Numbered from the stretch's first letter, positions 1 to 63,198 are shown. The stretch: DNA of 64,000 nt from Candidatus Micrarchaeia archaeon (GCA_041659465.1 JBAZYD010000007.1:5670-69669); one strand, 5' to 3'. Made by a program: numbers and translations. Notes: generated by a model not told the origin, from the letters alone.

Positions 1-3000
1 GCATGCGGACAGGCTGCAGTCGACATAATCGTTGTTGCCGTTGTTTTCCACCCCGCAGTTGCCGGTGTAGCCGTCCAGCCTGCACTGCTCAGGGCACTGC
101 TTGCATGAGTCGCGGTAGCTGTACGCGTTGGGGTTCTCGCCGCCGCGGTCGTTTATTTTTGAGTAGGCAACGGTTTGCGTCCATGTGCACGCGCCGGTGC
201 ATGCGCCCTCGGCCAGCCCAGGGCAGCCAGAGCCGTCGCAGTACCCGCCCTCGTCGTTCCAGGCGCAGCCGCTCTGGGCACTGCAATCGCCGGAGTTGGA
301 GTTCACGCTGCATGCCAGGCTGTGGCAGGCTGGACCCCCGTTGCCCAGGTATTCGCTGCAGACAGGCCATGTCTGGGCAGGCGCCACAAAGCACTCCGGG
401 TGGTCAGCGCGGAAAGTCGCGCATGGCGCGCAGAGCACCGGGTCAAGGTATGCCGCGGCAGGCCCGCCCACCCTGCAGCCAAACGGGCAGAGGGTGCATC
501 CCTCATCATAGCAGGCGCCGCCGGTGGGAAGGTCCACCACGATGGGGTCCCTCATGCACGCTGCGCCGCATTTGCCGGAGTCGCAGTTGTACTGGGAAGC
601 GAGCACGAGCGGGATGGAGGGCGGCGGGTTGATGATGGTGGAGATGGGGCTGGCAAGCGGGGCGCTTGCCAATGATGCGTCATAGGCGGTGCAGGTGAGC
701 GTCCATGTGTCCCCCACGGTGAGGGCTGATGCTGGTATTGAGCCTACGTTTACCTCGGTCCCCTGCAGGGCAGGCACAGTGGTGCTGCCGCTTGCATAGA
801 GATACTCTTCGTTGATTTCCCATGTGTAGGAATATGTCAGCATGTCATCCGCGTTCGCATCGCTTGCCTTGCAAAAGCCAGTGATGCCTGTCGAATACGC
901 CGGGGACGATATCCTGGAAGACGCCATGATGGGGGCGGCTGGCACGCCGGAGAGCCGTATTGCGCCTTGCGCGCCCAGGAACAGTATTGCGCTGCCGCCA
1001 GGGGGGGACGCCTGGGCGTTGCCGCAGGTCGCGCTGTACTCGCCAGGCACATAGCGCACCCTGAAGCGCGCAGCCTCGGGGCATGCGCGGCAGAGCTCCT
1101 GCGGCTGGCCGGCGGATACGTCAAGCGTGCGGCACATGAGCGGGGTCGTCGGGTCTGTCCTGCAGCTCGCGTCGCATGCAGGGGGTGCTCCGGTGGTGTC
1201 GCAGTTTATGTCCGGGTTCACCGCCTTGTCGCACACTGCAGGCTTGCTGGTCGAGGGGTCGCGCTCCACATTGGAATCTGCAATGAACATCCCGCCAAAG
1301 CTCGTGCGCCTGCAATAGTCAGGGCACGCCAGGCACATTTGGGGGGCATCGTTGACTATGGGGTAGGAGGAGCAGTTTTCCGGAGGGGGACCGGCAACTA
1401 TCAGGCACTCGGGGTGCGCCTTGCAGATGTCGCAGGCTGCTATGATTTCCGGCGACGAGCTGCATATCTTGGCAAAGTTTGGCGGGTCTATGTCATAAAG
1501 GCCCATCCAGGCAGGGTCGTTGAGGGCCTCGTCCACCCTGCACTCCGCAGGGCAGACTGTGGCCTGCCCGTTGGCATTCTTCACGCTGCATATCGAGTCG
1601 CAGGTTGCCGTAGCCCCTATCCGCGATGTGTAGAAGCACGCCTTGGGGCACGTCAGGTCTGTGTCAAGGTTCTTGCACGCAATGTTGATTTCGTCGCCGC
1701 TGTCGGTTACGGTGTATGGGTATACCAATGAGTAGCTGCCCACTGGCTCCTCCCGCATGAAGCGGCACCATGCTGGGTATTTGCCGCAGCCTCCGCAGCT
1801 CACTGACAGGTTGGCAGGCATCACCCCGCCCTTTTCATCGTTGAAGCATTTGTTCTCCGTCGGGACATTGGTGCGGCAGATGTCCGGGCACTTGCCCTTG
1901 CAGTCCGGGTCGGTCTGGCAGTTGAGCCTCTGGCGCACAATCTTGCATCCCGGGTTGCAGCTTGCGCACTTTGCTATGTCGCATCCGGGCATGCTCGATG
2001 GGAAAGGCACGTCGCGGCAGTAGTCCGGGCATTCTGAGCATGAGTTTGGCGCGATTACCGGGGCAGATGGGTTCTGGGGGTCAGTCTCGCTTCGTATCCC
2101 TATGCTGGTAAGGCTGCGGCATGCCACAAGGCCGGGGAAGTCGGACTTGCCGTCCCCGTTGAGGTCAGGCGCAGTCTGGGAATTCCAGTTGTCCTTGTTG
2201 ATGCCTGCGCGCACAATGGACTGTATGGTCGGGAACTGCACGAGCTGGCCTGTCGACGGGTCGGTGAAAAATGCCGCCGGGTATGTGGCGGTGCATTCGT
2301 TGGGGCAGAACGGGTCTGCCACGGCCAGCGTGCGCTCGCCATACACCGTGACATTGAGGGTGTACCAGGCAAAGGCATACGTGAGGGGGTAGACTATGAA
2401 GAGCGAGACCGCGACTGCGAGCAGCAGGCCGCCCAGCTTGCGCGTGAAGAAGAAGGTGCGGAGCACAATGCCAAGCAAAATGAAAAGCGGCGCGATGCCG
2501 AATGCCACCACGTCTATGAAATACCGCTGGGCGGTGAGGCTTGCAAGTATCTTGCTCGTCTGCGAGAAGAGCGCGCCGTGGCGCTCTGCCACCAGCGACT
2601 CGCCTGCGTTGAAGCGGATGGAAAAGCCGGCGTACGCGAAGTAGATGAGGTTCATGTTGACATTGTAGCCGTATGTTGCGCGCCTCATCTTCTCGATGGA
2701 CTCCTTCAGGTTGTCACGCGAATAGCCCTTGCCTATGTCGATGATGGTGGTGAGGTAGGCCTTTGCCGCTGCGACATAGCATGGCTCTGGGACGTTGCAG
2801 TCCACCGGCAGGTCAGAGGCATGTATTGCATAGGTGGCTGTCTGGTCGAAGAATGCCACCAGCGCGATGAGCGTGGCTATGAGCAGCACCGAAATCACGG
2901 CCTGCTTGATTTCGTTGTTTGCAAACGCCTTTATCTCCGGCAGGTTGAATGCTTTTCCGACCATTGCCGCGATTGCGATGATGGAGCAGACAATGGCAAC

Positions 3001-3693
3001 GCCTATCAGCCCCGCCGCCCTCCAGTCGGAGAACCAGCCCACGTTGTAGACGCCGGATGTGCCGTTGCTTTTCAGCACCGCGTTCCCCGTGCCTGCTTCC
3101 AGGCTGCCAATCGCGCTTACAGGGTTCTCGCTCCCGTATGTGGCTGTGCTTGACGGGGGGGGCATCACATAGGCGGCAGGCGAGTTGGTGCATACGCCGG
3201 GAATCTGGGTGCACTTGTAGGATGGGCTGTTGCCGGCGTCGTCGCATGCCAGGCACCTGGCGCACTGCGCGGTCGAGGCGCAGCCTTCCCCGTAGCCTGA
3301 GAGCCCGTCGTTGGAGCCGCATTCTCCCGGGCCAGGCACGTGCGGGGTCCATTTGCAGTCAGCCCAGGCGCAGCCCACCTGGTTGTTGTCGAACTGGCTG
3401 CAATAGGCAAGCCGCGAGCCGCCGCTGCAGGCCTTGGCGCCGTGCCCCTCCACAGCCTCGCCCCAGTTGCAGCCCATCACGCCGCAGCATCCCGAGTCCG
3501 GCATGTTTTCGCAGGATATCAGCGAAGAGCCGCTGCCATCCGCGGAGGTGCACGTCCCGGTGGGCGTGGCGCTCACTTCGCCGCAGGTGACAGACGCATG
3601 CACCGCTGGCATGCACAGGATGAGGAAGGCGATGCTGAGGGAAAGCGCAATGCCGCGATTGGATTTCCCGCCGTGCTTGGTTGCCATTGCCAT
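1..3693 (-). CDS. Giant Cys-rich secreted/polytopic membrane protein, 3'-partial (>=1231 aa visible); long paralog of the next two genes
   Basis: Not in the supplied ORF track. Checked line by line: plus-strand triplets starting at positions 1,4,7... contain no tta/cta/tca from 1 to 3702. ATG at 3693. Starts MAMATKHGGKSNRGIALSLSIAFLILCMPAVHA (signal-like), then a Cys-rich region, a TM core, and a >750-aa Cys-rich ectodomain. Confidence 0.85.
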   Translation of the reverse strand, partial: MAMATKHGGKSNRGIALSLSIAFLILCMPAVHASVTCGEVSATPTGTCTSADGSGSSLISCENMPDSGCCGVMGCNWGEAVEGHGAKACSGGSRLAYCSQFDNNQVGCAWADCKWTPHVPGPGECGSNDGLSGYGEGCASTAQCARCLACDDAGNSPSYKCTQIPGVCTNSPAAYVMPPPSSTATYGSENPVSAIGSLEAGTGNAVLKSNGTSGVYNVGWFSDWRAAGLIGVAIVCSIIAIAAMVGKAFNLPEIKAFANNEIKQAVISVLLIATLIALVAFFDQTATYAIHASDLPVDCNVPEPCYVAAAKAYLTTIIDIGKGYSRDNLKESIEKMRRATYGYNVNMNLIYFAYAGFSIRFNAGESLVAERHGALFSQTSKILASLTAQRYFIDVVAFGIAPLFILLGIVLRTFFFTRKLGGLLLAVAVSLFIVYPLTYAFAWYTLNVTVYGERTLAVADPFCPNECTATYPAAFFTDPSTGQLVQFPTIQSIVRAGINKDNWNSQTAPDLNGDGKSDFPGLVACRSLTSIGIRSETDPQNPSAPVIAPNSCSECPDYCRDVPFPSSMPGCDIAKCASCNPGCKIVRQRLNCQTDPDCKGKCPDICRTNVPTENKCFNDEKGGVMPANLSVSCGGCGKYPAWCRFMREEPVGSYSLVYPYTVTDSGDEINIACKNLDTDLTCPKACFYTSRIGATATCDSICSVKNANGQATVCPAECRVDEALNDPAWMGLYDIDPPNFAKICSSSPEIIAACDICKAHPECLIVAGPPPENCSSYPIVNDAPQMCLACPDYCRRTSFGGMFIADSNVERDPSTSKPAVCDKAVNPDINCDTTGAPPACDASCRTDPTTPLMCRTLDVSAGQPQELCRACPEAARFRVRYVPGEYSATCGNAQASPPGGSAILFLGAQGAIRLSGVPAAPIMASSRISSPAYSTGITGFCKASDANADDMLTYSYTWEINEEYLYASGSTTVPALQGTEVNVGSIPASALTVGDTWTLTCTAYDASLASAPLASPISTIINPPPSIPLVLASQYNCDSGKCGAACMRDPIVVDLPTGGACYDEGCTLCPFGCRVGGPAAAYLDPVLCAPCATFRADHPECFVAPAQTWPVCSEYLGNGGPACHSLACSVNSNSGDCSAQSGCAWNDEGGYCDGSGCPGLAEGACTGACTWTQTVAYSKINDRGGENPNAYSYRDSCKQCPEQCRLDGYTGNCGVENNGNNDYVDCSLSAC

Positions 3694-3702
3694 ATCATCA
3701 CT

Positions 3703-4710
3703 TCATACCGCGATTGCGCGAAGCGCCTTGGAAAGCGCCATGATGGAAGTCACCGTCACTATTATCACGAGGTTAGGGATGAAGATAGCCTGCGGAAGCA
3801 CCGAGCCTATGCGGTAGAACATCGTGGTCTTGATGTCGGGCGGGTAATACTGGCTGTTGTCAAGCCCGTAGGACTGGAACTTCTGGAGGCCTGTGACCGA
3901 GTATGGCGAGGAGACGTTCTGCACCTGGTCGGCGAACACCTGCGCGCTCATCGCATACATCGTGGGCGCGATTATGTACATCCCGAAGAAAAGCGCGAGC
4001 AGCATGTTGCCGAAATCGCGCGTGGGCGGCACCAGGCGGAGCACGAACGCGAACGGAAGCAATACGGACGCGCCCATCCATGCTATGCCCTGAAGGACGT
4101 ACTTCTGGGCTGTGAGGCTCGCCACGATGGGGAGGTAAAGGTCGATGAGGTATTCGCGCTGCGCGGAATACGCCTTGCGGTTCGCCCTCATCGCAACCCC
4201 GTCGCCCCAGAATGGCGTGAGCCCGAGGTAATAGTACTTGGTGGCGTCCATCTGGTTTCGGAGGCTGTCCGCCGTGAGCTCCTTGAGCACGTTGAGGCCG
4301 TTTGACTGCAGGAGCGAGTCCAGGTACATCTGCGACGCTGTTATCGGGCTTTGGTTGCCCGCGTAGCCCTGCGCAATCACGCAGGCGCCCGAGAAGAACA
4401 GCAGGATGCACGCGAAAAGGATGAGCGAGATTATGAGGTTGTAGGCTTCGTCCTTTGCCCACACGCCGGTTGCAGGGTCCTGCCGCACTTTCGAGTACAT
4501 GTATGCAAGCCCTAGGGCGAACGAGACAATGGCGAACGTGATTGCTATGAACGACACAGCCCCGCCGTTGCCGGCATCGGCAAAGCTTTCCACGCTGCAA
4601 GTCGAGCCCGGGCCCGTGTAGCCTGGCAGCGGGGGCGCTGTGGCAAAGCACGCCGAAACGGCAAGCGCGAAAAGCGCGAACAGAGCCCTTGTTTTTGCAC
4701 CCATGCTCAT
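3703..4710 (-). CDS. Polytopic membrane protein (about 5 TM), minimal paralog of the Cys-rich trio
   Basis: 335-aa ORF with an N-terminal signal-like segment. Shares the core motif ASLTAQKYVLQG...FVLRLVPPTRDFGNMLLALFFGMYIIAP with both neighbours. Its start ATG overlaps the upstream stop (ATGA at 4707-4710). Confidence 0.8.
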   Translation of the reverse strand: MSMGAKTRALFALFALAVSACFATAPPLPGYTGPGSTCSVESFADAGNGGAVSFIAITFAIVSFALGLAYMYSKVRQDPATGVWAKDEAYNLIISLILFACILLFFSGACVIAQGYAGNQSPITASQMYLDSLLQSNGLNVLKELTADSLRNQMDATKYYYLGLTPFWGDGVAMRANRKAYSAQREYLIDLYLPIVASLTAQKYVLQGIAWMGASVLLPFAFVLRLVPPTRDFGNMLLALFFGMYIIAPTMYAMSAQVFADQVQNVSSPYSVTGLQKFQSYGLDNSQYYPPDIKTTMFYRIGSVLPQAIFIPNLVIIVTVTSIMALSKALRAIAV

Positions 4711-6437: not shown

Positions 6438-6890
6438 TCATTTTCCAAACGAAGGGAAATAGTAGAAGAAGGGGAGCACTGCGATGATGATGGCGCCCAG
6501 GAGCGCGGGCATGAAAAGCCTGAATTCGCCATTCCCGAAATAGAACCCGCCAGCAACGACCAGCACGAAAAACAGCGCCGCCGCAAGCAGGTAATCACGC
6601 ACTTTTTTTTCGAACCTTGCGCGCCTTGCGCTTGCCTCCCCCAAATGCTCGCTGCATGCGACCGTATGCCTTGCAGGCTGGCGGAAAAGCGCGCGAAGCT
6701 TCCTTGCGGCGATGATTGGGAATTCCGGCTTGGCAGGGGCGCCTGCGCGGGCCGAGCCGCAGATTATGCATATCCCTTTTTCCAGAGAGCGCGCGCCTTG
6801 CCCCTGCGGGCGTGCGCCAATTCCCTGCGCCCGCGCGCCTTTTGCCTGCTTATCCGCGCGCTTTCTCCCCTTGGCATGGTTCGTTGCCAT
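6438..6890 (-). CDS. Small basic protein with a CxxC...CxxH motif and two C-terminal TM helices, hypothetical
   Basis: The ORF extends to 6947, but the ATG at 6890 (MATNHAKGRKR) sits about 25 nt downstream of a TATA-like box at 6913-6919. Contains ICIICGS...VACSEHL and a hydrophobic C-terminus. Confidence 0.5.
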   Translation of the reverse strand: MATNHAKGRKRADKQAKGARAQGIGARPQGQGARSLEKGICIICGSARAGAPAKPEFPIIAARKLRALFRQPARHTVACSEHLGEASARRARFEKKVRDYLLAAALFFVLVVAGGFYFGNGEFRLFMPALLGAIIIAVLPFFYYFPSFGK

Positions 6891-7048
6891 GGCGCAATTT
6901 CCCCACTTCCCCTTATAAAGCTGAGGATGCCAATTCATGCGCAACAACTACGGGCTAAATCCCCGTAGATTGCAGGCTGGTGGCTTTAGGCGGATGCGCC
7001 TGGATGGCAAGCAAATGTGCCGCGCACCCGCAGTTGATGGTGATATTT

Positions 7049-9891: not shown

Positions 9892-9991
9892 CGGGCCCGG
9901 AGGGATTCGAACCCTCAACCGTCTGGTGTCTTCCAGGCAAATCAATATGCCAGTTCGAAGCCAGCTACTCTATCCATTGAGCTACGGGCCC
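9892..9991 (-). tRNA. tRNA-Arg (anticodon TCG) with a 27-nt canonical 37/38 intron (9928-9954)
   Basis: Hand-folded cloverleaf: GGGCCCG/CGGGCCC acceptor, GCTC..GAGT D arm, loop CTTCGAA, T arm GAGGG-TTCGAAT-CCCTC, discriminator G. Bulge-helix-bulge motif: CTTC/GAAG helix flanked by 3-nt bulges GAA and ACA. No encoded CCA. Confidence 0.9.
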
Positions 9992-13238: not shown

Positions 13239-14366
13239 TTATCCTTCGACCTTGGCAACCCTGTCACTGCCAAAGGTAATATTCCTTCCTGTCATGGCGC
13301 GCATTACATCGGCGTTTGTCAAAAGATGCGGGGAAAACGCCGGCGTGGAAAACTCCGTTTTCCCCTCCGCGAGCACGGCGTGGATGAGGAGCTGGTCAGC
13401 CAAATGCGAGTCAACCGAGCAGCCCGGCTGCAAAATTGCGCCCTGCCGCGCGCCATCGCCCGCCTGCATCCCGCGCATGAGCTCCGCGCATGCCTCCTGT
13501 GCCACTTTTTCCGCGGGCTTTCCCCTTTCGCCAAGCGCAGATGCGCCGAATGCGCCGCTCCAAACCGTGAGTGCGTTGCCTGCGCATGATGCTTCCACTG
13601 CGCGTGCGCCGCCTGTTGCGCCGGGGAAGAGTTTTTTCACTTCCGCCTCCTCGCGCTGCAGGACGTGCGGGGGAAGCGAGGAGGCGAGGATGGAATACTT
13701 CACCTGCTGCGCCTCGGGCAGGAATTTGCAGCCGCGAAGCTTTGATGGCTCAGCCTTCAGCGAAACGATGCCGCCGCCTTTGGGGTAAAAGCCCGCGCGC
13801 TGCATCTTTGCCTCTGCGCGCACGCCGAACTTGCGGGCAGCAGGCAAAAACACCTCGGAAAAATACTCAAACGATGGCGAGTGCGACACGTGCGTGCCGC
13901 CAATTACCTCAAGGGAGCTCGGGTGCGCTGCGTGCGCAAGCACGGGAAGCGCCGCCTGAAGGAGAAGGGTGCATGAGCCTGCCGTTCCGATGTCGAATTT
14001 GTAGTCCCCGCCGGAAATTTTCCCAGGCAAGAATGTCAGCTCCGTGGAGCCAAGCGTTGCACCATGCATGCGCGCGCCGCAAATTTCGGATAGAAGATTG
14101 CACACCGTAAGATGCTGCGCGGCAAGGCCGGGCTTTGGCCTGCCTGCGCGGATGTTTGTGATGCGCACGGGCGCCTGGAGCACGCAGGAAAGGGAAAGCG
14201 CGGTGCGCAGCACCTGGCCGCCGCCCTCGCCCTGCGAGCCGTCAACTACTCGGGCCTGAAGGCCCGTATGCGCAGCCCAAGCGCCTTCAGCCTCGGCGCG
14301 CCCGGCTTCCGCCGCTCTGCCCGATGAGGGCGGGCGCGCCCGAGTAGTTGAGTCTATTTCAAGCAT
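13239..14366 (-). CDS. rtcA: RNA 3'-terminal phosphate cyclase
   Basis: DGSQGEGGGQVLRTALSLS...ITNIRAGRPKPGL..., GGTHVSHSPSFEY, VDSHLADQLL. Start taken at MLEIDS (ATG 14366); a GTG just before VVDGSQGEGGG is an alternative. Confidence 0.85.
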   Translation of the reverse strand: MLEIDSTTRARPPSSGRAAEAGRAEAEGAWAAHTGLQARVVDGSQGEGGGQVLRTALSLSCVLQAPVRITNIRAGRPKPGLAAQHLTVCNLLSEICGARMHGATLGSTELTFLPGKISGGDYKFDIGTAGSCTLLLQAALPVLAHAAHPSSLEVIGGTHVSHSPSFEYFSEVFLPAARKFGVRAEAKMQRAGFYPKGGGIVSLKAEPSKLRGCKFLPEAQQVKYSILASSLPPHVLQREEAEVKKLFPGATGGARAVEASCAGNALTVWSGAFGASALGERGKPAEKVAQEACAELMRGMQAGDGARQGAILQPGCSVDSHLADQLLIHAVLAEGKTEFSTPAFSPHLLTNADVMRAMTGRNITFGSDRVAKVEG

Positions 14367-14430
14367 GGAAAATGTAGAGGGGAGAAGGAATAAAACGCCC
14401 ACAGCCCGTCCGCGCGCGCAAACTGCAGCA

Positions 14431-15723
14431 TCATAGCCACGCCAGGCGGCGCGCAAGCGCCGCGGCGCCAATGGCAAACGGGAGGGCGAATGCAGCCGCG
14501 ACAATCGAGAAGTCCGGGAACGCCCCCTGCTGCTGCCGCGACGGGTAGGCCGCCGCAGCCACCCCGTCGCTTGCCTGCCTTTTTGCCATTGCGCCAATGC
14601 TGCCGCCTGGTGCGCCAGGCGATGAGAAAGGCGCTGGCTCGCGCACGGAAAATTCGCGCGGGAATTCCTGCTTGCGGGAGAATGCGTCCTCGATGATGAT
14701 TGTGAAGTTCGCCTTGCCTGCTGAGGCGTGCCAGGGGAATTCCAGGTAGAACGGCACATAGGACGCGTTTTTGTCCACAAGCTGATATGGGAAAATTGGC
14801 GCGCCTGCGTTGATGAAAACGCCTGATGCGGCTTGGGGCGGCGGTGAAAATTCCCTGCCCGCGATAGCCTCCCCGCACGGGCCCGTGCCTGCAGAAAACA
14901 AATAGGGCTGCACTGATGCGATTTCCCTGCCGTTGGAAACAAGGGAGATGCTTGCAGGCAGGCGGCGGGCAAACAGCGCCACCCTGCCGGTCCCATTCCC
15001 GCTCAGGCGCGAGGAAAGGGGAGGGTTCAGCCAAAGGACTGAGTCCGGCCCCACTTCCACGGAAAAATTGCGCGCGTCGGAAACGGTGCGATGGAATGCG
15101 CGGATGCCCTGGCTGTAATCAACCTCGCAGCCGCACCCAGTATATCCACCCATGCTGGTGCAGCGGTAGGAGTAGCCGCTTTTTGCAAATGAATAGGAAA
15201 CCGAGATGGTGGCTGAGAGGGAGAGGGAAAGGGGGGCAAAAGGCTGCAGGAAGTCCGCGCCGGCCAGCTTTGCAGAGGATAGGTTCAGGGGCGCGGGGTT
15301 TGGCCCCGAGGAAGAAAGCAAGAGCGCGGTTGTCGAGTTCCCATACCGGTAGGAAAGCTCGCCTGACAGCGATGGGGAGGAGGGCGCAAAATAGCGGATT
15401 TCCCCGGCTGGGCAGCGCATATCGTCCCTGATGGAAAAACGCGCGCTTGGCGGGAAAGATGCCGACCATGACCAGATGGCGGAGGCGTTTTGCAGGTCGG
15501 TTGTCGCATTGCTAACCTGCGGGACAAGGGAGACGATGCGGGCATCCGCCACGGAAAAGATGTCGCCTGCGGAAGGCAGCCGCTCTGGCGCGCCGCATGC
15601 GTTTGCGGCGCCAAGCAGGGAAGGGGCAAGCGCGATGTTTTGGGAGGATGCCTGCCCGACAGCAGCGGCTGCGAAGATGGGCGCGCAGAGCAGGAGCAGT
15701 GAAAAGTAAAGGGCGTTTCCCAT
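14431..15723 (-). CDS. Secreted protein with a C-terminal hydrophobic anchor, hypothetical
   Basis: MGNALYFSLLLLCAPIFAAAA is signal-like. Many N-x-S/T sequons. C-terminus is PDFSIVAAAFALPFAIGAAALARRLAWL. Starts 7 nt after the upstream stop. Confidence 0.6.
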   Translation of the reverse strand: MGNALYFSLLLLCAPIFAAAAVGQASSQNIALAPSLLGAANACGAPERLPSAGDIFSVADARIVSLVPQVSNATTDLQNASAIWSWSASFPPSARFSIRDDMRCPAGEIRYFAPSSPSLSGELSYRYGNSTTALLLSSSGPNPAPLNLSSAKLAGADFLQPFAPLSLSLSATISVSYSFAKSGYSYRCTSMGGYTGCGCEVDYSQGIRAFHRTVSDARNFSVEVGPDSVLWLNPPLSSRLSGNGTGRVALFARRLPASISLVSNGREIASVQPYLFSAGTGPCGEAIAGREFSPPPQAASGVFINAGAPIFPYQLVDKNASYVPFYLEFPWHASAGKANFTIIIEDAFSRKQEFPREFSVREPAPFSSPGAPGGSIGAMAKRQASDGVAAAAYPSRQQQGAFPDFSIVAAAFALPFAIGAAALARRLAWL

Positions 15724-15730
15724 GACACCA

Positions 15731-17734
15731 CTAGGGCAGAATCCCCCCAAGCCCGTTCCTGCTTGCAACCGTGAAAACAAGCTTGTCGTTTTCCAAGGCG
15801 AGCAGCACCTGGCTGTTCTCAAAGCCGGGCACGGCAAGCTCCTCGGTGAACTTCCCGAGCTCTTCGCTGCTTTCAAACACCACCGCGCGGCACGCCTTCC
15901 CAATCCCGGGCAGCAGCTGCTTCTTCCCCCTGAAAAGCGCAAGCTCAAGCTCCCCTTTTTTCACCGTGATTGCCGGCTTCCTTGAAAAGCGCAATCCCCG
16001 CTCAAGCATGCATTCGTGGATGGTGCGGAGCATCATAAGCTCGCGCGCGGAGAACCCGCCCATCCGCGCCCTTGGGATGAACGCCCCATCATGCTCTGCA
16101 AAAAACCCGTCGGATGACAGCTTGCAAAGTATGCGCTGCACGCTGTGCGCGTTCACGGGCAATGCGCCTTGCCCGCCATTTCCCGGCAGGAGCCCTGCTG
16201 CGATTTCATGGGGATGGCAGGGCAGGGAAAAGCCGCCGAGCTTCTTGTCCGCGCGGACGTAGGCCGAGGCGACCTCCCTGGCGCCTACGCAGAGCACCTT
16301 CGGGTCGGAAAGCGCGACTTCCGGGAAGGAGATGGAGTATTTCGTGCGCTTGCCTGCGCGCAGGAGAAGGAAAACCGCGAGGACAAAAATCGCCGCTGGC
16401 ACGCCAAAGCGCAGGTAGGTGTCGATGAGCGCGCCCATGCCCGATTGCTGCGGCACGAACGGGTAATCCGCCCTCGAGCCTGAAAGCCCGAACCCGAAGG
16501 TGTGGTTGCCCGGAGGGGGCGCGGACCAGATGACAAGGCGGCCTTCATGCACGGAATAGTTTTTTGGCGCCCCGCCGTCAAGCCTTGCCGACATGGCGCC
16601 TTCAGCAGGAACATTGTCAAGAAGCGCCAGGAATTCGTACCTGTTGCCGTCCGCGGACACGGGCATGACGGAAAGCATGGGCACGGACACAAAGGCGGAA
16701 GCGTGCACGCGGGCGAACTGGTCCATCACGCGCACCACATACCTGCCGCCCCTAGGAAAGCCCATGGAGAACCTGCTTGCAAAGCCCTGCCTTACCTCCC
16801 CGCCGGCAATTTTGCGGCGGAACGCCTCCCCTTCAGGCAGGAATGCCACTGCGGAAAAGCTGAGGTTCCTGCCCACCTCGCCCCCGCCGAGGAGCGAAAA
16901 TTCGTAAATGCCATCCTGCCCTGCCGCAAGATGCGCAGGCCCGATTAAGCTGCCAGGCGTGGGGGATAGTTTTCCGCTGTCGGAAAACCTGTAATTGCCC
17001 ATGCCTGCCTCGCACACTGCGCGGCAATAGGCGGCGCTTGAGTTTACCGGCACCGCGAGCGTGGCGTTGCCAGGCAAGGATAGGGAGCGCACGGTTTGGG
17101 CGCCTGCCAGGAAAATCGCGCGCCTTGCCGTTTCCGCCATTGCGCCCCCGTCGTTGGAAGGCGGCAGGCGCACCAGCTCGAAATTTCCCGGAAGGCTTCC
17201 GTTCATCTGCGCAAGGTTGCCGTTTTCATCCATTGTTTTCCCTGGCAGCGCCTCAAGCACGATTACGCGGGTATTTTGCGACTCAAGCGCAAGGGCATCT
17301 TGAAGGAGGGGAAGCGGGATTGCGCCTGCCGGGGAGATTATGAGCGTGTTTTCCGAAGAGAGCGCATCCGCAAGGGATGCAGCACGGGAGGAAAGCCCGC
17401 TCTTCATGAGCGCGGCGGATATTTTCAAGGGCAGGCCTGCATCCACGCCGGGCGCGGACGGGAATGCGAGCAGGAGGATGTTGTTTTGCAGGGGGCGGGG
17501 CGAGCAATAGGCGGACAGGTTGCGCGCGGAATCCGAGGCGAGGTAGAGCCGCAGCACTGCAGATTGCGATGCGTTTGCGCCAGCGTCCGCGATTTCCGCC
17601 GAGCGGATGCCGAATGCCGCCTGCGCGCGCTCGCCCGCCTGCGCCTGCTGCGGCGGCGCGCCAGGGAAAGGGATGAGCAAAACGAGGAAAAAGGCGATAA
17701 AGAGAAGCGCGATGGCTCCCACCAGCCTGCGCAT
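15731..17734 (-). CDS. Bitopic envelope protein with a cytoplasmic C-terminal domain, hypothetical
   Basis: Start at MRRLVGAIALLFIAFFLVLLIPF (ATG 17734). About 430-aa external part, a second TM (VPAAIFVLAVFLLLRAG), and an about 190-aa C-terminal domain. No family recognised. Confidence 0.6.
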   Translation of the reverse strand: MRRLVGAIALLFIAFFLVLLIPFPGAPPQQAQAGERAQAAFGIRSAEIADAGANASQSAVLRLYLASDSARNLSAYCSPRPLQNNILLLAFPSAPGVDAGLPLKISAALMKSGLSSRAASLADALSSENTLIISPAGAIPLPLLQDALALESQNTRVIVLEALPGKTMDENGNLAQMNGSLPGNFELVRLPPSNDGGAMAETARRAIFLAGAQTVRSLSLPGNATLAVPVNSSAAYCRAVCEAGMGNYRFSDSGKLSPTPGSLIGPAHLAAGQDGIYEFSLLGGGEVGRNLSFSAVAFLPEGEAFRRKIAGGEVRQGFASRFSMGFPRGGRYVVRVMDQFARVHASAFVSVPMLSVMPVSADGNRYEFLALLDNVPAEGAMSARLDGGAPKNYSVHEGRLVIWSAPPPGNHTFGFGLSGSRADYPFVPQQSGMGALIDTYLRFGVPAAIFVLAVFLLLRAGKRTKYSISFPEVALSDPKVLCVGAREVASAYVRADKKLGGFSLPCHPHEIAAGLLPGNGGQGALPVNAHSVQRILCKLSSDGFFAEHDGAFIPRARMGGFSARELMMLRTIHECMLERGLRFSRKPAITVKKGELELALFRGKKQLLPGIGKACRAVVFESSEELGKFTEELAVPGFENSQVLLALENDKLVFTVASRNGLGGILP

Positions 17735-20471: not shown

Positions 20472-20563
20472 TGGGCCCACGAGGATGGAGCGCGAAGCGC
20501 GACAGATTTTGCGCGCAGCGCAAAACGTGGGCACACGAGCAGCAGCGAGTGGGCCCACGAGGA
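20472..20563. repeat. 14-nt exact direct repeat tgggcccacgagga (20472-20485 and 20550-20563)
   Basis: The second copy is the 3' acceptor strand plus T-stem of tRNA-Val. The first copy lies 64 nt beyond the tRNA 3' end. The spacer contains the perfect hairpin TTTTGCGC-TGC-GCGCAAAA. Confidence 0.8.
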
Positions 20564-20693
20564 ATCGAACCCCGAGTCTTCTGCACGTCAAGCAGACGTC
20601 TTACCATTGTCGAACCCATTTGCACTTTTCCGTTGACGCTTTTGCGAGCGTGCCCATCTGGAGCGAGCAAAAGGGTCATTCGACTATAGGCCC
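20550..20693 (-). tRNA. tRNA-Val (anticodon GAC) with an about 70-72-nt intron in the D-loop (about 20605-20677)
   Basis: Exon 1 is GGGCCTA-TA-GTCG-AAT(G). Exon 2 is (AT)GGTAAGAC-G-TCTGC-TTGACGT-GCAGA-AGACT-CGGGG-TTCGATT-CCTCG-TGGGCCC-A. BHB-like: TCGA/TCGA 4-bp helix flanked by 3-nt bulges ATG and CAA, then an ACCC/GGGT helix. Confidence 0.8.
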
Positions 20694-26489: not shown

Positions 26490-28136
26490 CTAATTTCTCT
26501 TCTTGTCCAGCTGCGCAAGCTTCTTGTCGATTTTCTTCTCGGATTCCAGCCTTTCAAGCGCGTAAGAAGAATAATCCACGAACTTCATTCCCGATGCAAG
26601 GAGAGGGTGCGTTTCCTTGAGAAGCTTGTGCATGTCCTGCGCCACGCGCCTGTAGTCGATGTGCCCCTGGCGCATGGAGCGCAGCTCGCAGAAGTGGTAT
26701 GCCTCGCGCAGGTTCATCTTCATGTACCAGCGCATGCGGAAGCCAAGCGGAACGACGTACTGCGCTTCATAGGGCATTTCCTTTTCCATCTCGCGGAAAA
26801 GCGCGTCTGCAGGCGCAAGAGCGTCCTGGATTTGCCTGCCAAAGCCCGCATCAAGAAGCTCTTGCGGCATGTCAAATCCGTGGCGTGTGGTGAGAAGCTG
26901 GCGCTCCTGCGTGAGTATCCTGTGCCTGTGCAGGTCGCGGTACATGCCGAAGTTCCCTGTGACGCAGAAAGTATAGAAGGCGTTCTCGAACGCCCTGCCT
27001 GGCTTTTGCCTCCTGTTTGCGCGATTGCCGATGTAGGCGCGGATGATTTCCTCGCGCTCTGCTTGCGGCAGGCGCTTGGCGATTGATTGCGCTTCTTTGT
27101 ATGAGCAGTGGAGCTGAGGGAAGATTATGGCTGCGAGAACCTTGTCCTCGGCGTCCGAGTCAAAGTCGACAAGTGTGGTGTGCGAAACGTCATCCTTTGC
27201 CTCGCTTGCATGCTTTGCGGCGATTGCCGCTATTCTGTTGCGGTTTTCCATCATGTAGCCCTGCATTTCCTTGCCGTATTTGTCGTTTGCGCGTTTCACG
27301 AACGACGGGATGACTTTTGAGAGCTCGGACTGCGCCTGAGGCGCGATTGCGCGCGTTTCAGAGAGGGGGGAAGAGTACATTTTTGCAAGCAGGTACTCAA
27401 ACGCCCTGCCGTTGCCGTAAAAGCCGGCGTTTGTGAGCGTTGCTGCGGGGAGTATGCCGCGCAGCAAATCGCACACCTTTGCGCGTATGGTGGATGCATA
27501 TGCCCTCTCGCTCACGTCGGAGGCGCGCGGGTTTTTTTCCTCTTCTATTTTTGTGAGCTTTGGGATGAGGGATGCATAAGTGTCAAACAGGAGGTCCGAG
27601 GCTGCGATGTACTTTTCTGCAAAGCGGGAGGACATTATCTTCTCTTCGCGCAAGTACCTGTACTTGCCGTCCTCTTTCTGGTCAAAGTACACATAGCGGG
27701 TGGACTTTTCCAAAGGCGAGATGCCAATCCTCGCGTCCTGCATGAATTTTGTCGCCAGATTGGAGATGTTCTCCGCAGCCAGGTGCGCGCCGCCCAATTC
27801 AGCCACGGAATCGTCGCCGTAGCCGACAAGCACCCTGTCATAGAAGTCCTCGGCTTTCTTGGTGGCGACGATTTGCGACTCGCCGCGGTTTTTCATCTCG
27901 CCCACAATGGCATCAAAGCCGGATTCAGGGTTCAGTATGAATTCGTCCAAAAGCACGCGGCGAAGCGATTTGCTTGAGCGAGAGTAGCGTGAGAAAAGCG
28001 CGCCCTTGACCGCCTCGGGAAGGTTCATGAGGCAGAAGACGTCGGACGTGGTGCTGGTGCAGAACTGCGAGAGTATGCCCTGTTCGCTTGGAGTAAAAGT
28101 TTCCACGCACCCACCGCTTGAAAGATGACGTACCAT
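26490..28136 (-). CDS. thyX: FAD-dependent thymidylate synthase ThyX, long form
   Basis: YRDLHRHRILTQERQ (a variant of the ThyX RHR motif), plus a second ThyX-like N-terminal half (FSRYSRS). Confidence 0.7.
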   Translation of the reverse strand: MVRHLSSGGCVETFTPSEQGILSQFCTSTTSDVFCLMNLPEAVKGALFSRYSRSSKSLRRVLLDEFILNPESGFDAIVGEMKNRGESQIVATKKAEDFYDRVLVGYGDDSVAELGGAHLAAENISNLATKFMQDARIGISPLEKSTRYVYFDQKEDGKYRYLREEKIMSSRFAEKYIAASDLLFDTYASLIPKLTKIEEEKNPRASDVSERAYASTIRAKVCDLLRGILPAATLTNAGFYGNGRAFEYLLAKMYSSPLSETRAIAPQAQSELSKVIPSFVKRANDKYGKEMQGYMMENRNRIAAIAAKHASEAKDDVSHTTLVDFDSDAEDKVLAAIIFPQLHCSYKEAQSIAKRLPQAEREEIIRAYIGNRANRRQKPGRAFENAFYTFCVTGNFGMYRDLHRHRILTQERQLLTTRHGFDMPQELLDAGFGRQIQDALAPADALFREMEKEMPYEAQYVVPLGFRMRWYMKMNLREAYHFCELRSMRQGHIDYRRVAQDMHKLLKETHPLLASGMKFVDYSSYALERLESEKKIDKKLAQLDKKRN

Positions 28137-39254: not shown

Positions 39255-40298
39255 ATGAGCAAGGAAGTTATGCACATGGGTACGCAAGGGCATCTAAAAC
39301 AGAAAACAAGGAAGCAATCCGACAGTCCAACTACTACCAAAAGGCCAGGAAAATTCGGCAGGTTTGCCCGCCGGGCCGTGCTGTTTGCCGGACTCGCGGC
39401 AGGAATCATCGCTCCTTCCCTTTCAAGCGCGCAGGGAAAAGACATTGCCAAGGCGTTCCCTTCGCAGGATGGCGACAAGAACAAGATTGCGCTCACAACG
39501 GCAGGCGAAAAGCTCCTTCCGAAAAACACGCTTGTGCTTCCCGACACCGCGCCCGTGCCGTCATACACGCGCAATGTGACGCCTGTCGGCGGGGTTCCGG
39601 AGAATGCCACGGCAGATGGCAAGGATGCAAAGAAGATAGAGCCCGACCCGAACGGACCATTCAAAGTTGAAGGTGGATGGGCAGAGAGCGTGGAGATAAG
39701 GAATGATAGTTTGATTTTTAATAAAGTTGAAGTGAATGGAAAAAAGGCTACTTATGGTGGTGCACCGATCGGAGAATTTCTAATGTCAAGGGGGATTGTT
39801 CCTGAGAACCGTTCGATAAAAAGTAGCGAACTAAGAGAGATTAATGCAGATAACCGATGTGGTGCAATAGTATTTGTATCGAATGGAAAAAGCCTGCTCT
39901 ATTATTTGACAACAAATTTGACTAAAAATGATTTTGGAGCCGTAGCTGTAAGCGCATCAGACGGTTCAGTTCCATTCGAGCACAAAGAAGCATTGATAGT
40001 GAGTCTCGACGGATCGGCATTTACATTGACACCAACTACATTCCTTGGCTTAATACCAGTGAAAGACAAATTCCTAAAGATAGATATGACATTTAGCGAG
40101 ATTGTTGGACAGACAATCCCCCCATTTGAAAAGCCAGTTATTGACATTAAAAATGGGAAAGTAAGAATCCGAGATAGAACAATAAGTGATGAAGCTGGAA
40201 AGAAATATGATCTGCTCATTAATCCATTTACTATCATGTTAAATCCAAAGGGAAGCATTGAGCTTGTTGAAAGTGGCGAACCATTGACAAAAAATTAA
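39255..40298 (+). CDS. Secreted hypothetical protein (possible twin-arginine signal), compositionally chimeric
   Basis: GRFARRAVLFAGLAAGIIAPSLSSAQG. GC is high up to about 39680, then falls to about 35%. Confidence 0.6.
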   Translation: MSKEVMHMGTQGHLKQKTRKQSDSPTTTKRPGKFGRFARRAVLFAGLAAGIIAPSLSSAQGKDIAKAFPSQDGDKNKIALTTAGEKLLPKNTLVLPDTAPVPSYTRNVTPVGGVPENATADGKDAKKIEPDPNGPFKVEGGWAESVEIRNDSLIFNKVEVNGKKATYGGAPIGEFLMSRGIVPENRSIKSSELREINADNRCGAIVFVSNGKSLLYYLTTNLTKNDFGAVAVSASDGSVPFEHKEALIVSLDGSAFTLTPTTFLGLIPVKDKFLKIDMTFSEIVGQTIPPFEKPVIDIKNGKVRIRDRTISDEAGKKYDLLINPFTIMLNPKGSIELVESGEPLTKN

Positions 40299-40313
40299 TT
40301 TCAAGGTGAATAA

Positions 40314-41129
40314 ATGTTCTTATTCCAGGGGACAGGATCAGTTTGGGGAAAAGCGACAATTGAAAAGGTCAGTAAACAACAAATCCAAGCAGAAACGATT
40401 GTTTCTGATGCAGTGGCAAAAGGCAAATCAAACAACGAAATAGTACAAGGCCTAAAGAAGAACGGATTTGAAGTTGAAGTCAAGGATAAAGCAGGCGTAG
40501 TATTGTATCCGCCGGGATTTGTACCTAAACAAGAAGAGTTCAATAAAAACAAAGAACTTTCTCTGAATGTAATCCAGAATGAAAAGAAAATAGCAATGTT
40601 AGAAATTGATAAAGAAAAAGGGACAATAAATGGCAAACAAGCTGAAAAAATAGAGGCAGTCGAGGAGAGACTGAATGGGGCTTTGGCAGTTGTTAATGAT
40701 CTTTTTACGGGTAAATATGGAAAAATTGAAGAACTTGCAGAGTTTATATCCGCAAATGCTAATGATCCAACTTTGGCAAAAGTAGTAATAGAAATTAAAC
40801 AGACAGATAAGATGGCAATGGGATTCATGCAGCAGCCAAACTCGCAAGAGATACTGAACCAACCAGAAAATGCAGAGACAAAGAAACTATATGAAACTAA
40901 CCAAATATCTGCAACAGAAGTGGTCAGACGATTGGGCTTGGAAAAGGATTTCAAGAACTGGCTCCAGGAACAGCTTGACGCGATTGGGGGCATTAAGGAC
41001 GCAGGAACCACTTCAGCACCGATGGGGCGAATAATTTCATATCAGTGGCAAGGCATCATAAACCGAAAGGATGAAGATAACATGGCTGAAGTTCAGAAAA
41101 GGGACGAGGACGCCATCAAGAAGGGTTAA
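40314..41129 (+). CDS. Hypothetical K/E-rich protein in a low-GC islet
   Basis: 271-aa ORF at about 33-38% GC. No signal peptide and no family recognised. Confidence 0.55.
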   Translation: MFLFQGTGSVWGKATIEKVSKQQIQAETIVSDAVAKGKSNNEIVQGLKKNGFEVEVKDKAGVVLYPPGFVPKQEEFNKNKELSLNVIQNEKKIAMLEIDKEKGTINGKQAEKIEAVEERLNGALAVVNDLFTGKYGKIEELAEFISANANDPTLAKVVIEIKQTDKMAMGFMQQPNSQEILNQPENAETKKLYETNQISATEVVRRLGLEKDFKNWLQEQLDAIGGIKDAGTTSAPMGRIISYQWQGIINRKDEDNMAEVQKRDEDAIKKG

Positions 41130-41151
41130 TGCTGGAACTTCTTTTTCATCC

Positions 41152-41751
41152 TTATTGCATCGCAAAGTAGAGGAACCTCTGCCCGAATGTTATCGCCGCC
41201 AGCACTGCCCCTGCGAAGAGCAGGAAGGATGCGCAGCTTAGGCAGAAGGGGACAAGCGCGAGCGCGATGAAGAGAAGGATGAGGCGCTCTGCGCGCGGGA
41301 AGATGCCGGGCTGTGATGCGAGCTTGCGCGCGTTAGCGACCTTTCTGTGGTCTGCGTACGCGGTGGCAAAGCTTGTCATGCACGAGCCGAAGAAAAGGAA
41401 TGCGATTATCCATGCCGCAGCCGGAAGGATGAATGGAGGGAGCGCGTAGAAGAAAAACGAGCAGGCGAACAGGAATTCCACCAGCCTGTCTATCATGCCG
41501 TCTATGTAGGCGCCGCGCGTGGAAACCTCCTTCCTTGCGCGCGCAACCGCGCCGTCGATTGCGTCGGTGGCGCCTGAAAGGATGAAAAAGAGCAGGGAAA
41601 GGAGAGGCTGCTGCGCGTAGGCGAAATAGAAGCCCACAAGCGCGAGAAGGAGCGCGCACACAGTAATCTGATTCGCCGAGAGGGGAAGGCAGGAGAAAAG
41701 CCTTCCTGCCTCTTGCTGGAAGCGCACGCCAATGCTTGTTTTTTTGAGCAT
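41152..41751 (-). CDS. CDP-alcohol phosphatidyltransferase, probable archaetidylinositol-phosphate synthase
   Basis: DAIDGAVARARKEVSTRGAYIDGMIDRL is the D-G-x2-A-R-x8-G-x3-D-x3-D motif. Lies immediately downstream of MIPS. Start at MLKKTS. Confidence 0.75.
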   Translation of the reverse strand: MLKKTSIGVRFQQEAGRLFSCLPLSANQITVCALLLALVGFYFAYAQQPLLSLLFFILSGATDAIDGAVARARKEVSTRGAYIDGMIDRLVEFLFACSFFFYALPPFILPAAAWIIAFLFFGSCMTSFATAYADHRKVANARKLASQPGIFPRAERLILLFIALALVPFCLSCASFLLFAGAVLAAITFGQRFLYFAMQ

Positions 41752-41753
41752 GG

Positions 41754-43085
41754 TTACACCTTGCCTGTCCCCCAGTAGTCGTAATACTCTATTCCAAGGT
41801 GCGTTATCAGCTCCTCGCCCATGAGGTAGCGCAGCGTGTTTTTCAGCTTCATGTGCTGGATGAACAGGTCGTGCTCGGGATGCACCGAAGGGGCGTGCAT
41901 GGGCGCCTTGAAGTAAAAGGACAGCCACTCCTGCATGCCGGACATGTGTGCGCGCGCAGCAAGGTCCATGAAAAGCGCAAGGTCAAGCACAATGGGCGCG
42001 GCCAAAATGCTGTCCTTGCACAGGAAATTTATCTTCAGCTGCATGGGGTATCCCATCCAGCCGAATATGTCTATGTTGTCCCAGCCCTCCTTGTCGTCGT
42101 TTTTCGGGGGATAGTACTCGATGCGCACCTTGTGGTACATGTCCTTGTACAATTCAGGGTACATGTCCGGCTGGAAGATGAACTCCAGCGAGGATTTCTT
42201 GCTCATTTCCTTGCTCTTGAAAGAGCCTGCGTCGTCAAGCACCAATCCGTCTCGGTTTCCCAATATGTTTGTGGAAAACCATCCGCGCACGCCAAGCATC
42301 CTTGCCTTGAACATGGGAGCAATGGCGGTTTTCACCAATGTTTGCCCTGTCTTGAAGTCCTTGCCAGCTATCGGGATGCCTTTTTTTCTTGCAAGGTCTG
42401 TAAGCGCAGGTATGTCAAGCGTGAGCTGCGGGGAGCCGTTGGTATAGGGGACGCCTTCCATTATGGCGGCGTAGGCGTAAATCATCGAGGGGGAAATTGA
42501 GGGGTTGCTTTCAACAAGACCCTTTTCAAACGCCTCGAGGCTTTCGTGCACAGGCTGGAGCGTCATGTAGGATTCAGTGCTTGCGCACCAGACGACAACC
42601 ATCCGAGAGAGGTTTTTCTCTTTTTTGAAGTTTTTGATGTCCTCGCGCAATTGATTTGCCAAGTCAAGCTTGTTTTTCCCTTTTTTCACGTTCGGGCCGT
42701 CTATGTTCTTGATGAAATTATGGTCAAACACCGCCTTCATGGGCTTGATTTTCTCGAGCTCGTCTTTTACGATGTCAATGTGCTCGCGCGTCAGCACGCC
42801 TGCTTTTACCGCAGCCTCGTAGGCGTTGTCTGGGAAAATGTCCCATGCGGCGAATTCAAGGTCGTTCAATGAAGCGAGCGGCACAAAGTCCTTGATGAGC
42901 GGCGCCTTTTTCGCATCGCGCTTGCCAAGCCGTATTGTCTGCATCTGGGTGAGGCTGCCGACGGGAAGCAGTTTTTTCCTGCGCGCAAGCATCACGCCCG
43001 CGATGAACGTGGTGGACACCGCGCCCAGGCCGGGAAGCAGTATGCCGAGCTTGCCTTTTGCTGGCTCTATTTTCACGTTTGCCAT
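41754..43085 (-). CDS. myo-inositol-1-phosphate synthase
   Basis: GILLPGLGAVSTTFIAG, VVWCASTE, NGSPQ, SKEMSKKSSLE..., typical archaeal/bacterial MIPS. Start at MANVKIE. Confidence 0.9.
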   Translation of the reverse strand: MANVKIEPAKGKLGILLPGLGAVSTTFIAGVMLARRKKLLPVGSLTQMQTIRLGKRDAKKAPLIKDFVPLASLNDLEFAAWDIFPDNAYEAAVKAGVLTREHIDIVKDELEKIKPMKAVFDHNFIKNIDGPNVKKGKNKLDLANQLREDIKNFKKEKNLSRMVVVWCASTESYMTLQPVHESLEAFEKGLVESNPSISPSMIYAYAAIMEGVPYTNGSPQLTLDIPALTDLARKKGIPIAGKDFKTGQTLVKTAIAPMFKARMLGVRGWFSTNILGNRDGLVLDDAGSFKSKEMSKKSSLEFIFQPDMYPELYKDMYHKVRIEYYPPKNDDKEGWDNIDIFGWMGYPMQLKINFLCKDSILAAPIVLDLALFMDLAARAHMSGMQEWLSFYFKAPMHAPSVHPEHDLFIQHMKLKNTLRYLMGEELITHLGIEYYDYWGTGKV

Positions 43086-43182
43086 ATTAAGCACCTCGAT
43101 GACTATTATATGAAATCTATAATAGTATAGGATTATAAGAATAGCGCTTGCCGGCAGCCACGCCACGAGGTTAACCTACTGC

Positions 43183-47755: not shown

Positions 47756-47760
47756 TTGGC

Positions 47761-61111: not shown

Positions 61112-61130
61112 GCTTCAGTGCACGCCCGTT

Positions 61131-63196: not shown

Positions 63197-63198
63197 AA

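Follow-up and report, generated by a model that had tools for sequence, protein, structure and literature searches.

An open reading frame at the edge of a Micrarchaeota DNA segment encodes a cysteine-rich membrane protein, the third of six paralogues in a conserved operon

A 64,000-nucleotide stretch of DNA from Candidatus Micrarchaeia archaeon (GCA_041659465.1, JBAZYD010000007.1:5670-69669; here termed the window) begins inside a very long open frame on its minus strand (1..3693), which raises the question of whether this frame is a gene and, if so, what its product might do. An earlier note, made from the sequence alone, had proposed that a cysteine-rich membrane protein of at least 1,231 codons lies there, missing from the supplied open reading frame (ORF) track. 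The analysis presented here establishes that the frame is a real coding gene truncated by the window edge. Its product, referred to below as BIG, is an integral membrane protein and the third of six anciently duplicated, fixed-order paralogues that form a translationally coupled operon in every sufficiently long locus examined. The gene was already known as a hypothetical protein; what is new is an uncharacterised, phylum-wide six-paralogue membrane system whose core and Cys modules have no relatives in the libraries searched.

Translation of the minus strand across 1-3705 gave a single stop, the TGA at 3703-3705, followed by 1,234 sense codons down to base 1; counted from the first ATG (3693-3691), 1,231 codons remain. 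The earlier note had therefore not overlooked an in-frame stop, and the BIG frame contains none internally, compared with 39 and 19 in the remaining two minus frames. Because GC-rich DNA (GC content here 0.61-0.63) yields long spurious ORFs, and several plus-strand ORFs of more than 190 residues overlap BIG, it might be argued that the frame is open by chance, non-coding or itself a shadow of plus-strand genes. This explanation is refuted beyond reasonable doubt. GC at the three codon positions of the BIG frame is 0.54/0.55/0.78, in line with the third-position value (GC3) of 0.7-0.8 in neighbouring genes, and a GC3 of 0.78 is seen in no other frame of the region. The plus-strand ORFs at 967-1731, 2578-3153 and 3340-4305 show the inverse pattern (GC1 0.77-0.82, GC3 0.52-0.55) and are thus antisense shadows, as the note had supposed. 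Furthermore, 64 homologues share conserved Cys, transmembrane (TM) segments and termini with BIG, and its AlphaFold2 model is confident. The frame is indeed absent from the ORF track, and the gap is fully explained by the exclusion from that listing of ORFs that run off the window ends; the 'missing ORF' as such is an edge artefact, and the gene was already in GenBank.

The GenBank entry, MFA5929878.1 / WC861_03260, is a 1,411-residue 'hypothetical protein' on a 74,825-bp contig of a Candidatus Micrarchaeia metagenome-assembled genome. It is the same gene, identical to all 1,231 window codons and adding 180 C-terminal residues that lie beyond base 1; no member of the family has been given a function, a domain annotation or a family name. 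The full-length sequence used here was reconstructed by joining the window ORF to the C-terminus of a public protein, P0001, and the 1,411-residue result is identical to MFA5929878.1. P0001 is the JGI call for the same gene, and it starts at the internal Met177 to give 1,235 residues, whereas the NCBI call gives 1,411. In BLASTP searches, residues 1-176 of BIG matched the N-termini of 13 homologues (E 1e-13 to 3e-31), and the homologues P0002 and P0007 have the same N-terminus as BIG. Since the N-terminal domain is kept at the N-termini of the 13 homologues, the ATG at 3693 (or 3687) is taken as the true start rather than Met177. This start lies 9 nt past the stop of the upstream gene and directly after a Shine-Dalgarno-like element, GTGAT. 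The upstream-most paralogue in the window, paralogue 1, is likewise called at two lengths, 439 residues by JGI and 559 by NCBI, and here the longer NCBI call is supported by a 74%-identical full-length match (residues 1-561) in a related locus, L001.

The 64 homologues were found at E<=1e-3, with 59 of them below 1e-125, and those in the alignment of the family (A1) are 28-65% identical to the window sequence and have the same architecture. All named homologues come from Micrarchaeota, a phylum now listed as Microcaldota at NCBI. A profile search of 1.84 billion representative proteins extended this to 1,913 clusters at E<=1e-3, in which every named member is again from Micrarchaeota. A third homologue search, with the broad profile A3 and a ceiling of 8,000 candidates, brought in no additional members. 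Two loci labelled 'Candidatus ainarchaeum' nest among Micrarchaeota-labelled loci; they are 58-77% identical to these and, on that basis, were taken as a labelling quirk rather than as an occurrence outside the phylum. The window itself carries an archaeal RNase P RNA.

The layout of BIG was derived from hydropathy and from an AlphaFold2 model built with a 63-sequence alignment (mean predicted local distance difference test score, pLDDT, 78.7; predicted TM-score, pTM, 0.45). As the earlier note had suspected, the protein begins with a signal peptide, which is of the Sec type (residues 1-35, MAMATKHGGKSNRGIALSLSIAFLILCMPAVHA followed by S; 3589..3693, minus strand), with a hydrophobic stretch at residues 13-35 and no twin-arginine; a class III (pilin) signal peptide was considered and rejected. 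It is followed by an extracellular N-terminal region (residues 36-227; 3013..3588, minus), delimited by BLASTP and Cys positions, that consists of a 17-Cys domain (36-176) and a linker ending in a conserved WFSDW. The note had counted about 17 Cys in the first 170 or so residues; the recount is 18, one of them within the signal peptide. The family core (residues 228-443; 2365..3012, minus) is defined by a core hidden Markov model (HMM), the AlphaFold2 model and invariant columns. It holds four TM helices (TM1 228-250, TM2 265-287, TM3 393-413 and TM4 421-443), modelled as long helices that reach into an extracellular bundle with a pLDDT of 80-90. Between TM2 and TM3, residues 288-392 (about 100) would form an extracellular helical hairpin and a small beta hairpin with two invariant Cys (299, 305), and the cytoplasmic connection between TM3 and TM4 carries the motif FFFTRKLGG, in which R and G are invariant. 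The Cys-rich ectodomain comes next (residues 444-1231 in the window, 1..2364 on the minus strand, continuing to about 1371), as judged from Cys counts, conservation and pLDDT. A fifth TM helix at 1372-1394 and the cytoplasmic C-terminal tail SPILGGDIEIPGIGRII complete the protein. Each TM helix contains zero to two strongly polar residues, and K and R are most concentrated in the short cytoplasmic loops of BIG. The tail carries the position-3 signature L-G-G-D-I-E-I-P-G-x-[GS]-[RK]-[IV]-[IF], found outside the window as GGDIEIPGIGRII in P0001; its conservation in A1 exceeds 90%, and the deep-lineage orthologues of about 700 residues have it too. The fifth helix was not in the earlier note; nor were the GenBank deposit and the six fixed-order paralogues described below.

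Of the 105 Cys in BIG (7.4%), 102 face outward in the predicted topology. The ectodomain, about 920 residues (444-1371), contains 83 of them, which bears out the claim of a long ectodomain rich in CxxC pairs; in the model it is made up mostly of short helices, strands and coil with a pLDDT mostly of 75-95. In the modelled part, 51 of 71 Cys are at least 90% conserved across 63 sequences, against an ectodomain identity otherwise of 34-50%. Identity by region drops from 0.76 (core) to 0.45 (middle and distal ectodomain) and 0.31 (an Ig-like insert). The motif C-x2-C-P-x2-C-R recurs six times, and the wider CP-x2,3-C-[RK] occurs at eight sites. A search of the 1,411 residues for the haem motif CxxCH found none, and His makes up only 0.6% (nine residues), so that BIG is not a cytochrome. 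A Tat-exported, haem or Fe-S redox protein was similarly set aside, since the signal peptide lacks RR, CxxCH is absent and the recurrent motif is not of the ferredoxin type CxxCxxCxxxCP. The roughly 50 conserved extracellular Cys would form disulfides or possibly metal sites, and their extreme conservation in organisms of largely anoxic habitats makes the choice between the two a biochemical puzzle.

Two further elements of the ectodomain had been singled out in the earlier note, and each stands in part. The loop DLNGDGKSDF (residues 510-519), described there as Ca-binding-like, does fit a DxDxDG pattern. Its DLNGDGKSD segment (residues 510-518; 2140..2166, minus) is a calcium-binding-like loop in which D-x-[ND]-x-D-G-x-x-[DE] is kept in about two-thirds of the 63 homologues, with a gap in the rest (A1 column counts), and its only backing from a domain library is a sub-threshold FG-GAP match (E 0.22). 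The stretch called Ig/PKD-like corresponds to an inserted Ig/FN3-like beta-sandwich (residues ~922-1006; 676..930, minus) identified by AlphaFold2, where its strands are model residues 746-829, and by Foldseek, with which it matched FN3 and Ig structures in the PDB and BFVD at E 2e-3 to 1e-2, a probability of ~1.0 and a TM-score of up to 0.62 relative to the target. Against this, Pfam gave no match to the sandwich even at E<=1, and the insert is present in 15 of 62 homologues. The resemblance of BIG to CARDB/FN3/Ig modules (PF07705 and relatives) is thus that of an ~85-residue sandwich superposing on FN3/Ig; it differs from them in being clade-specific, in lacking a Pfam match and in covering 6% of the protein. 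Elsewhere in the family, PF07705 (CARDB) itself is recorded in two BIG homologues and in paralogues 4 and 5 of Anstonella.

The wider significance of BIG lies in its neighbours. Directly upstream are paralogue 2 (335 residues; 3703..4710, minus), which has a signal peptide, five TM helices and an extracellular four-helix bundle, and paralogue 1 (559 residues, NCBI MFA5929880.1; 4707..6386, minus), which has a signal peptide, a knottin-like Cys-rich N-domain, a core with the motif FSFTRRLGG and C-terminal TM helices, and ends in GGEPQLYGLSKLV. Both share the five-TM core with BIG (tblastn/HMM E 1e-10 to 1e-22). That BIG contains the TM core of a family, as the earlier note had it, is supported by the core HMM, which finds the two upstream genes at E 4e-22 and 2e-15. 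BIG itself belongs to the core family by an HMM match of E 7.6e-131, by FFFTRKLGG, which fits T-R-x-[LF]-G-[GN], and by the presence of TM5. Paralogue 2 is the minimal and most conserved subunit (AlphaFold2 pLDDT 84.1, pTM 0.73), at 83% identity compared with 57% for BIG in the same genome pair. The window holds paralogues 1, 2 and 3 in order before its edge, and the operon beyond BIG was read in the relatives L001, L002, L048 and L049, where three more core genes follow; the core HMM matches all six. Adjacent genes are tightly packed, with a 4-nt ATGA overlap between paralogues 1 and 2, the 9-nt gap before BIG, and overlaps or gaps of a few nucleotides elsewhere.

When 49 fetched loci were scanned with the core HMM, exactly six tandem core genes were found wherever the locus was long enough, and their order and size classes are constant: 400-560 residues at position 1, 305-335 at position 2, 625-1,600 at position 3 (BIG), 330-990 at position 4, 350-1,040 at position 5 and 340-465 at position 6. 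A best-hit test on 37 non-redundant six-gene Micrarchaeota loci, from which four duplicate loci had been dropped, placed the best cross-locus match at the same position in 86-100% of comparisons, and position-3 genes found theirs at position 3 in 1,328 of 1,332. The scatter at positions 1 and 2 probably arises in part from overlapping ORF calls, for example in L032. The six positions therefore represent six separate orthologous groups, and the duplications predate the divergence of these lineages. Paralogues 2 and 6 consist of the core only, while paralogues 1, 3, 4 and 5 bear lineage-variable ectodomains. At position 3 the ancestral size is about 700 residues. Three parts are phylum-wide: the core, the ~170-290 residues that open the ectodomain, and the C-terminal module, which includes the GGDIEIPG tail. 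The clade of the window has gained the N-terminal Cys domain and about 570 internal residues, including the Ig-like insert. The operon adjoins MetAP, KsgA, TBP and L21e in the window, L002 and L049, and its GC content matches that of its flanks. This housekeeping setting and matching GC indicate a chromosomal operon that is inherited vertically. The idea that BIG is a gene of a mobile element or of a viral envelope was rejected on the same grounds and for lack of any PHROGs match; the BFVD matches of BIG are confined to the Ig-like domain.

Position 6 is followed, in seven of the seven loci inspected, by a protein of about 1,100-1,500 residues with a lipobox-like N-terminus (L-x-G-C). Large genes also hold this slot in L001, L048 and L049, and a second giant protein is often next. 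Examples of these giant lipoprotein-like genes lie at 11029-15567 in L001, 16190-20143 in L028, 16126-19518 in L043 and 18260-22405 in L049. Their products are 4-6% Cys and have no similarity to BIG or Pfam domains; a Pfam scan of the downstream giant proteins of five loci gave nothing. From the gene order in relatives, the corresponding gene of the window's genome would lie just past the window edge. In L024, a gene with an ORF6N/Rha-type phage regulatory domain (16710-17585) is inserted between the sixth paralogue and the giant lipoprotein-like gene.

What might such an assembly do? The interpretation favoured here, with moderate confidence, is that BIG is the subunit with the large ectodomain in a hetero-oligomeric complex, for the envelope or for contact, on which cross-linked surface modules are displayed. 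All six paralogues would come together in a single hetero-oligomeric platform in the membrane, possibly as a ring of six in which each is present once. This is suggested by their constant number and order, by the fact that each position is an orthologous group of its own and by the finding that the ectodomain-free paralogue 2 is the most conserved. Because the TM helices contain hardly any polar residues, they would act as an anchor or scaffold rather than as a solute pore. The variable ectodomains of positions 1, 3, 4 and 5, of which BIG has the longest, would serve as binding or structural elements on this constant base; across the family these ectodomains consist of Cys-rich mini-modules with occasional Ig/CARDB (adhesion-type) domains. 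The BIG ectodomain would form a rigid stalk or spike, built of small modules that some 50 invariant Cys hold together, bearing in the clade of the window the DxDxDG loop and the Ig-like insert as well, and would project from the membrane toward or through the S-layer. Meanwhile, the conserved cytoplasmic tail GGDIEIPGxGRII may dock a partner. The role envisaged is that of a cell-envelope or contact structure showing binding modules, for adhesion to partner cells or surfaces, for envelope organisation, or for both.

Several points weigh against this interpretation. No adhesion domain is detectable by sequence in BIG, and the Ig-like insert, being lineage-specific, cannot define the ancestral function. 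The only basis for a hexamer is the presence of six fixed paralogues. Disulfides outside the cell would be less obviously stable under anoxia, the condition of many of the source habitats. In addition, the operon also occurs in Anstonellales lineages that have been called anabolically versatile and possibly less host-dependent (PMC8561730, PMC12892359), which weakens a strictly host-contact role. The window organism encodes HMG-CoA reductase and inositol-1-phosphate synthase, which together with the occurrence in Anstonellales cautions against a purely host-parasitic function.

Since the ectodomain of BIG is large, Cys-rich and variable, carries an Ig-like insert and differs in size between lineages, BIG could instead be a stand-alone surface adhesin or S-layer-type wall protein, with the TM part as a mere anchor and the neighbouring genes encoding independent, redundant surface proteins; a Sec substrate with a C-terminal TM helix is also what many archaeal surface proteins look like. 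This is judged unlikely. Redundant adhesins normally vary in number and order, but here there are six in a fixed order, each position forming its own orthologous group, and the core is the most conserved part of BIG, just as the protein without an ectodomain is the most conserved of the operon. The S-layer variant has a direct comparison within the phylum, namely SLP_Mh of Micrarchaeum harzensis, a heavily glycosylated protein with almost no sulfur amino acids and with TIGR01564/01567-type domains (10.1101/2021.04.28.441871). BIG resembles it in being large, Sec-exported and at the surface, but is neither sulfur-poor nor, by NCBIfam, in possession of TIGR01564/01567 or any other S-layer domain, and it has five TM helices and three ectodomain N-glycosylation sequons; membership of the archaeal S-layer proteins was rejected on its Cys content and the NCBIfam result. 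Comparison may also be made with the SPEARE proteins of Nanohaloarchaeum antarcticus. These are encoded by single genes and have recognisable protease, adhesion and nuclease domains. Like BIG they are very large surface proteins, each restricted to a lineage of DPANN archaea with reduced genomes, and are suspected of a part in host interaction; BIG differs in having no recognisable domains, in its polytopic core and in belonging to a six-paralogue operon.

Searches for known families and folds bear on whether the operon instead encodes a conduit. Pfam, NCBIfam and PHROGs searches with BIG and paralogues 1 and 2 returned only a spurious Anophelin match and a sub-threshold pilin-like one, and seven pieces of the BIG ectodomain run against Pfam (E<=1) gave only sub-threshold FG-GAP, Dickkopf_N and Toxin_12. 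No family recurred meaningfully when weak matches of 55 and 65 family members to Pfam and NCBIfam were pooled by voting, and PDB sequence-profile searches with alignments A1 and A3 found nothing. With Foldseek, the AlphaFold2 models of BIG (PDB, BFVD) and paralogue 2 (PDB) matched nothing of use beyond the Ig-like insert. The pilin-like match, to a VirB2/TrbC-type conjugative pilin of the Mbov_0395 family (NF045849), covered only TM1-TM2 with 15.9 bits against a cut-off of 40 (E 0.0078), and the lead was dropped when none of 65 family members matched. The best Foldseek match of paralogue 2, to TTYH2 (E 0.28, TM-score 0.10-0.19, root-mean-square deviation above 20 Å), was not significant, and a Tweety fold was rejected. 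TTYH proteins are eukaryotic homodimers. TTYH1-3 do resemble the six-paralogue core in having an extracellular N-terminus, five TM helices that extend into an extracellular helical bundle and a cytoplasmic C-terminus, but share no sequence similarity with it. In the literature searched on Micrarchaeota and DPANN Cys-rich surface proteins, paralogues and operons, no description of this family was found.

The mycobacterial Mce systems, in which a MceA-F heterohexamer works with YrbE permeases and the MceG ATPase, offer a parallel for an import function, being lipid importers. By analogy, the six paralogues might form a channel or extracellular tunnel through which lipids, metabolites or macromolecules are taken up from a host or from the environment, and BIG would be the receptor or docking subunit at its distal end. 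Reliance on imported building blocks is general among DPANN archaea, six fixed operon paralogues recall MceA-F, the extracellular helical bundle of each subunit could line a tunnel, and the giant lipoprotein-like protein after the operon at every locus checked would suit such a device. The likeness is one of gene organisation only, that is, of six membrane-anchored paralogues in tandem and in fixed order, presumably one copy each in one envelope-spanning assembly whose extracellular parts are long and helical. The Micrarchaeota operon differs from Mce in having no MCE domain, permease or ATPase, in its five TM helices per subunit instead of one, in its Cys-rich ectodomains and in being archaeal. 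Membership of the MCE-type transporters was rejected, as no operon protein scanned had a matching Pfam or NCBIfam family and the gene lists of four loci contained no ATPase or permease; the only Pfam domain seen in the operon proteins scanned was CARDB, in some large position-4 and position-5 proteins as well as in the two BIG homologues. No substrate-binding protein was detected in or beside the operon at the loci examined either, no similarity in sequence or fold to any transporter was found, and a near-absence of polar residues from the TM helices is poorly suited to a pore. The two biosynthetic enzymes named above mean that lipid auxotrophy is not required. A conduit is accordingly regarded as improbable, and a displaying platform of the envelope remains the preferred account.

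A more specific version of contact would be a cell-cell contact or membrane-fusion machine that builds the cytoplasmic bridges reported to link DPANN archaea and their hosts, in analogy with multi-subunit, disulfide-rich viral entry-fusion complexes. An invariant membrane complex of several subunits that is confined to the phylum, has rigid ectodomains cross-linked through Cys and lacks enzymatic domains would fit such a task, the DPANN lifestyle is consistent with the need for one, and we know of no other candidate for the bridge machinery. Nevertheless, this is very unlikely: Foldseek searches with the BIG and paralogue 2 models detected no fusion loop, heptad-repeat trimer or class I-III fusogen fold, and the operon is present in the lineages thought to be less host-dependent. 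Moreover, the nanotubes seen between cells in the ARM-1 co-culture, the only one of Micrarchaeota to have been imaged, were attributed to the host and not to the Micrarchaeon (PMC11329633), which also speaks against a Micrarchaeal bridge machine.

An envelope or contact platform thus accounts best for the conserved operon. A bolder extension, which must be considered speculative and rather doubtful, is that the six-paralogue platform and the giant lipoprotein-like protein together constitute a new, phylum-defining envelope machine, with folds absent from the PDB. Its variable Cys-knotted ectodomains, the largest being that of BIG, would then allow the cell to recognise partner cells and to couple to them physically at a contact, bridge or fusion site. 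If true, it would provide the first molecular handle on host attachment of this DPANN phylum. Micrarchaeota are genome-reduced, and next to nothing of the biology of their envelope and host contact has been worked out in molecular terms. At roughly 20-25 kb, the operon would take up an estimated (not measured) 2-3% of a genome of about 1 Mb, and the universal retention of so expensive a surface complex makes it an obvious candidate for that biology.

Upstream of the array is a small gene (6438..6947, minus) for a protein with a basic N-terminus and two C-terminal TM helices; on the cytoplasmic side it contains a CxxC...C/H zinc-ribbon-like segment, and it has no Pfam match. By tblastn, homologues lie directly upstream of paralogue 1 in 13 related loci, or 12 once the L002/L006 and L013/L049 duplicates are taken into account; one of the 13 matches is truncated because its contig ends there. 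The TTG given as the start probably lies too far upstream, and an ATG near 6890 is likelier, as homologues begin near 'MATNHAKG'. A role as regulator or assembly factor of the operon is possible.

Further along the window, ARAGORN called no tRNA anywhere, whereas Rfam gave a 100-nt tRNA match at 9892-9991 (minus; 56.6 bits), which is probably an intron-containing archaeal tRNA, and a weak one at 20550-20617 (minus; 32.5 bits). A 526-residue ORF at 45177-46757 (minus) contains 34 Cys (6.5%) with no TM segment, signal-like start or Pfam domain and is apparently a second, cytoplasmic, Cys-rich orphan protein. GC content falls to 0.47-0.48 at 40001-42000 and 54001-56000, compared with about 0.59 elsewhere; the ORFs there, at 39255-40298 (plus), 40314-41129 (plus) and 53818-55539 (minus; GC3 0.53) have no Pfam domains, and these stretches may be acquired islands. 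The RNA 3'-phosphate cyclase ORF (13239-14996, minus) has an extension of about 255 residues ahead of its RTC domain, and in the ThyX ORF (26490-28136, minus) the Thy1 domain occupies only residues 342-511 of 548; in both cases either the start is listed too far upstream or the ORF is a fusion. Finally, the products encoded at 41754-43166 (minus), 47722-49041 (plus) and 57254-63295 include myo-inositol-1-phosphate synthase, HMG-CoA reductase, a MurJ/Wzx-like flippase, a phosphoglucomutase/phosphomannomutase-family enzyme (PGM/PMM domains) and a sugar epimerase/dehydratase, which suggests that the window organism has more lipid and glycan biosynthetic capacity than the most reduced of the DPANN genomes.

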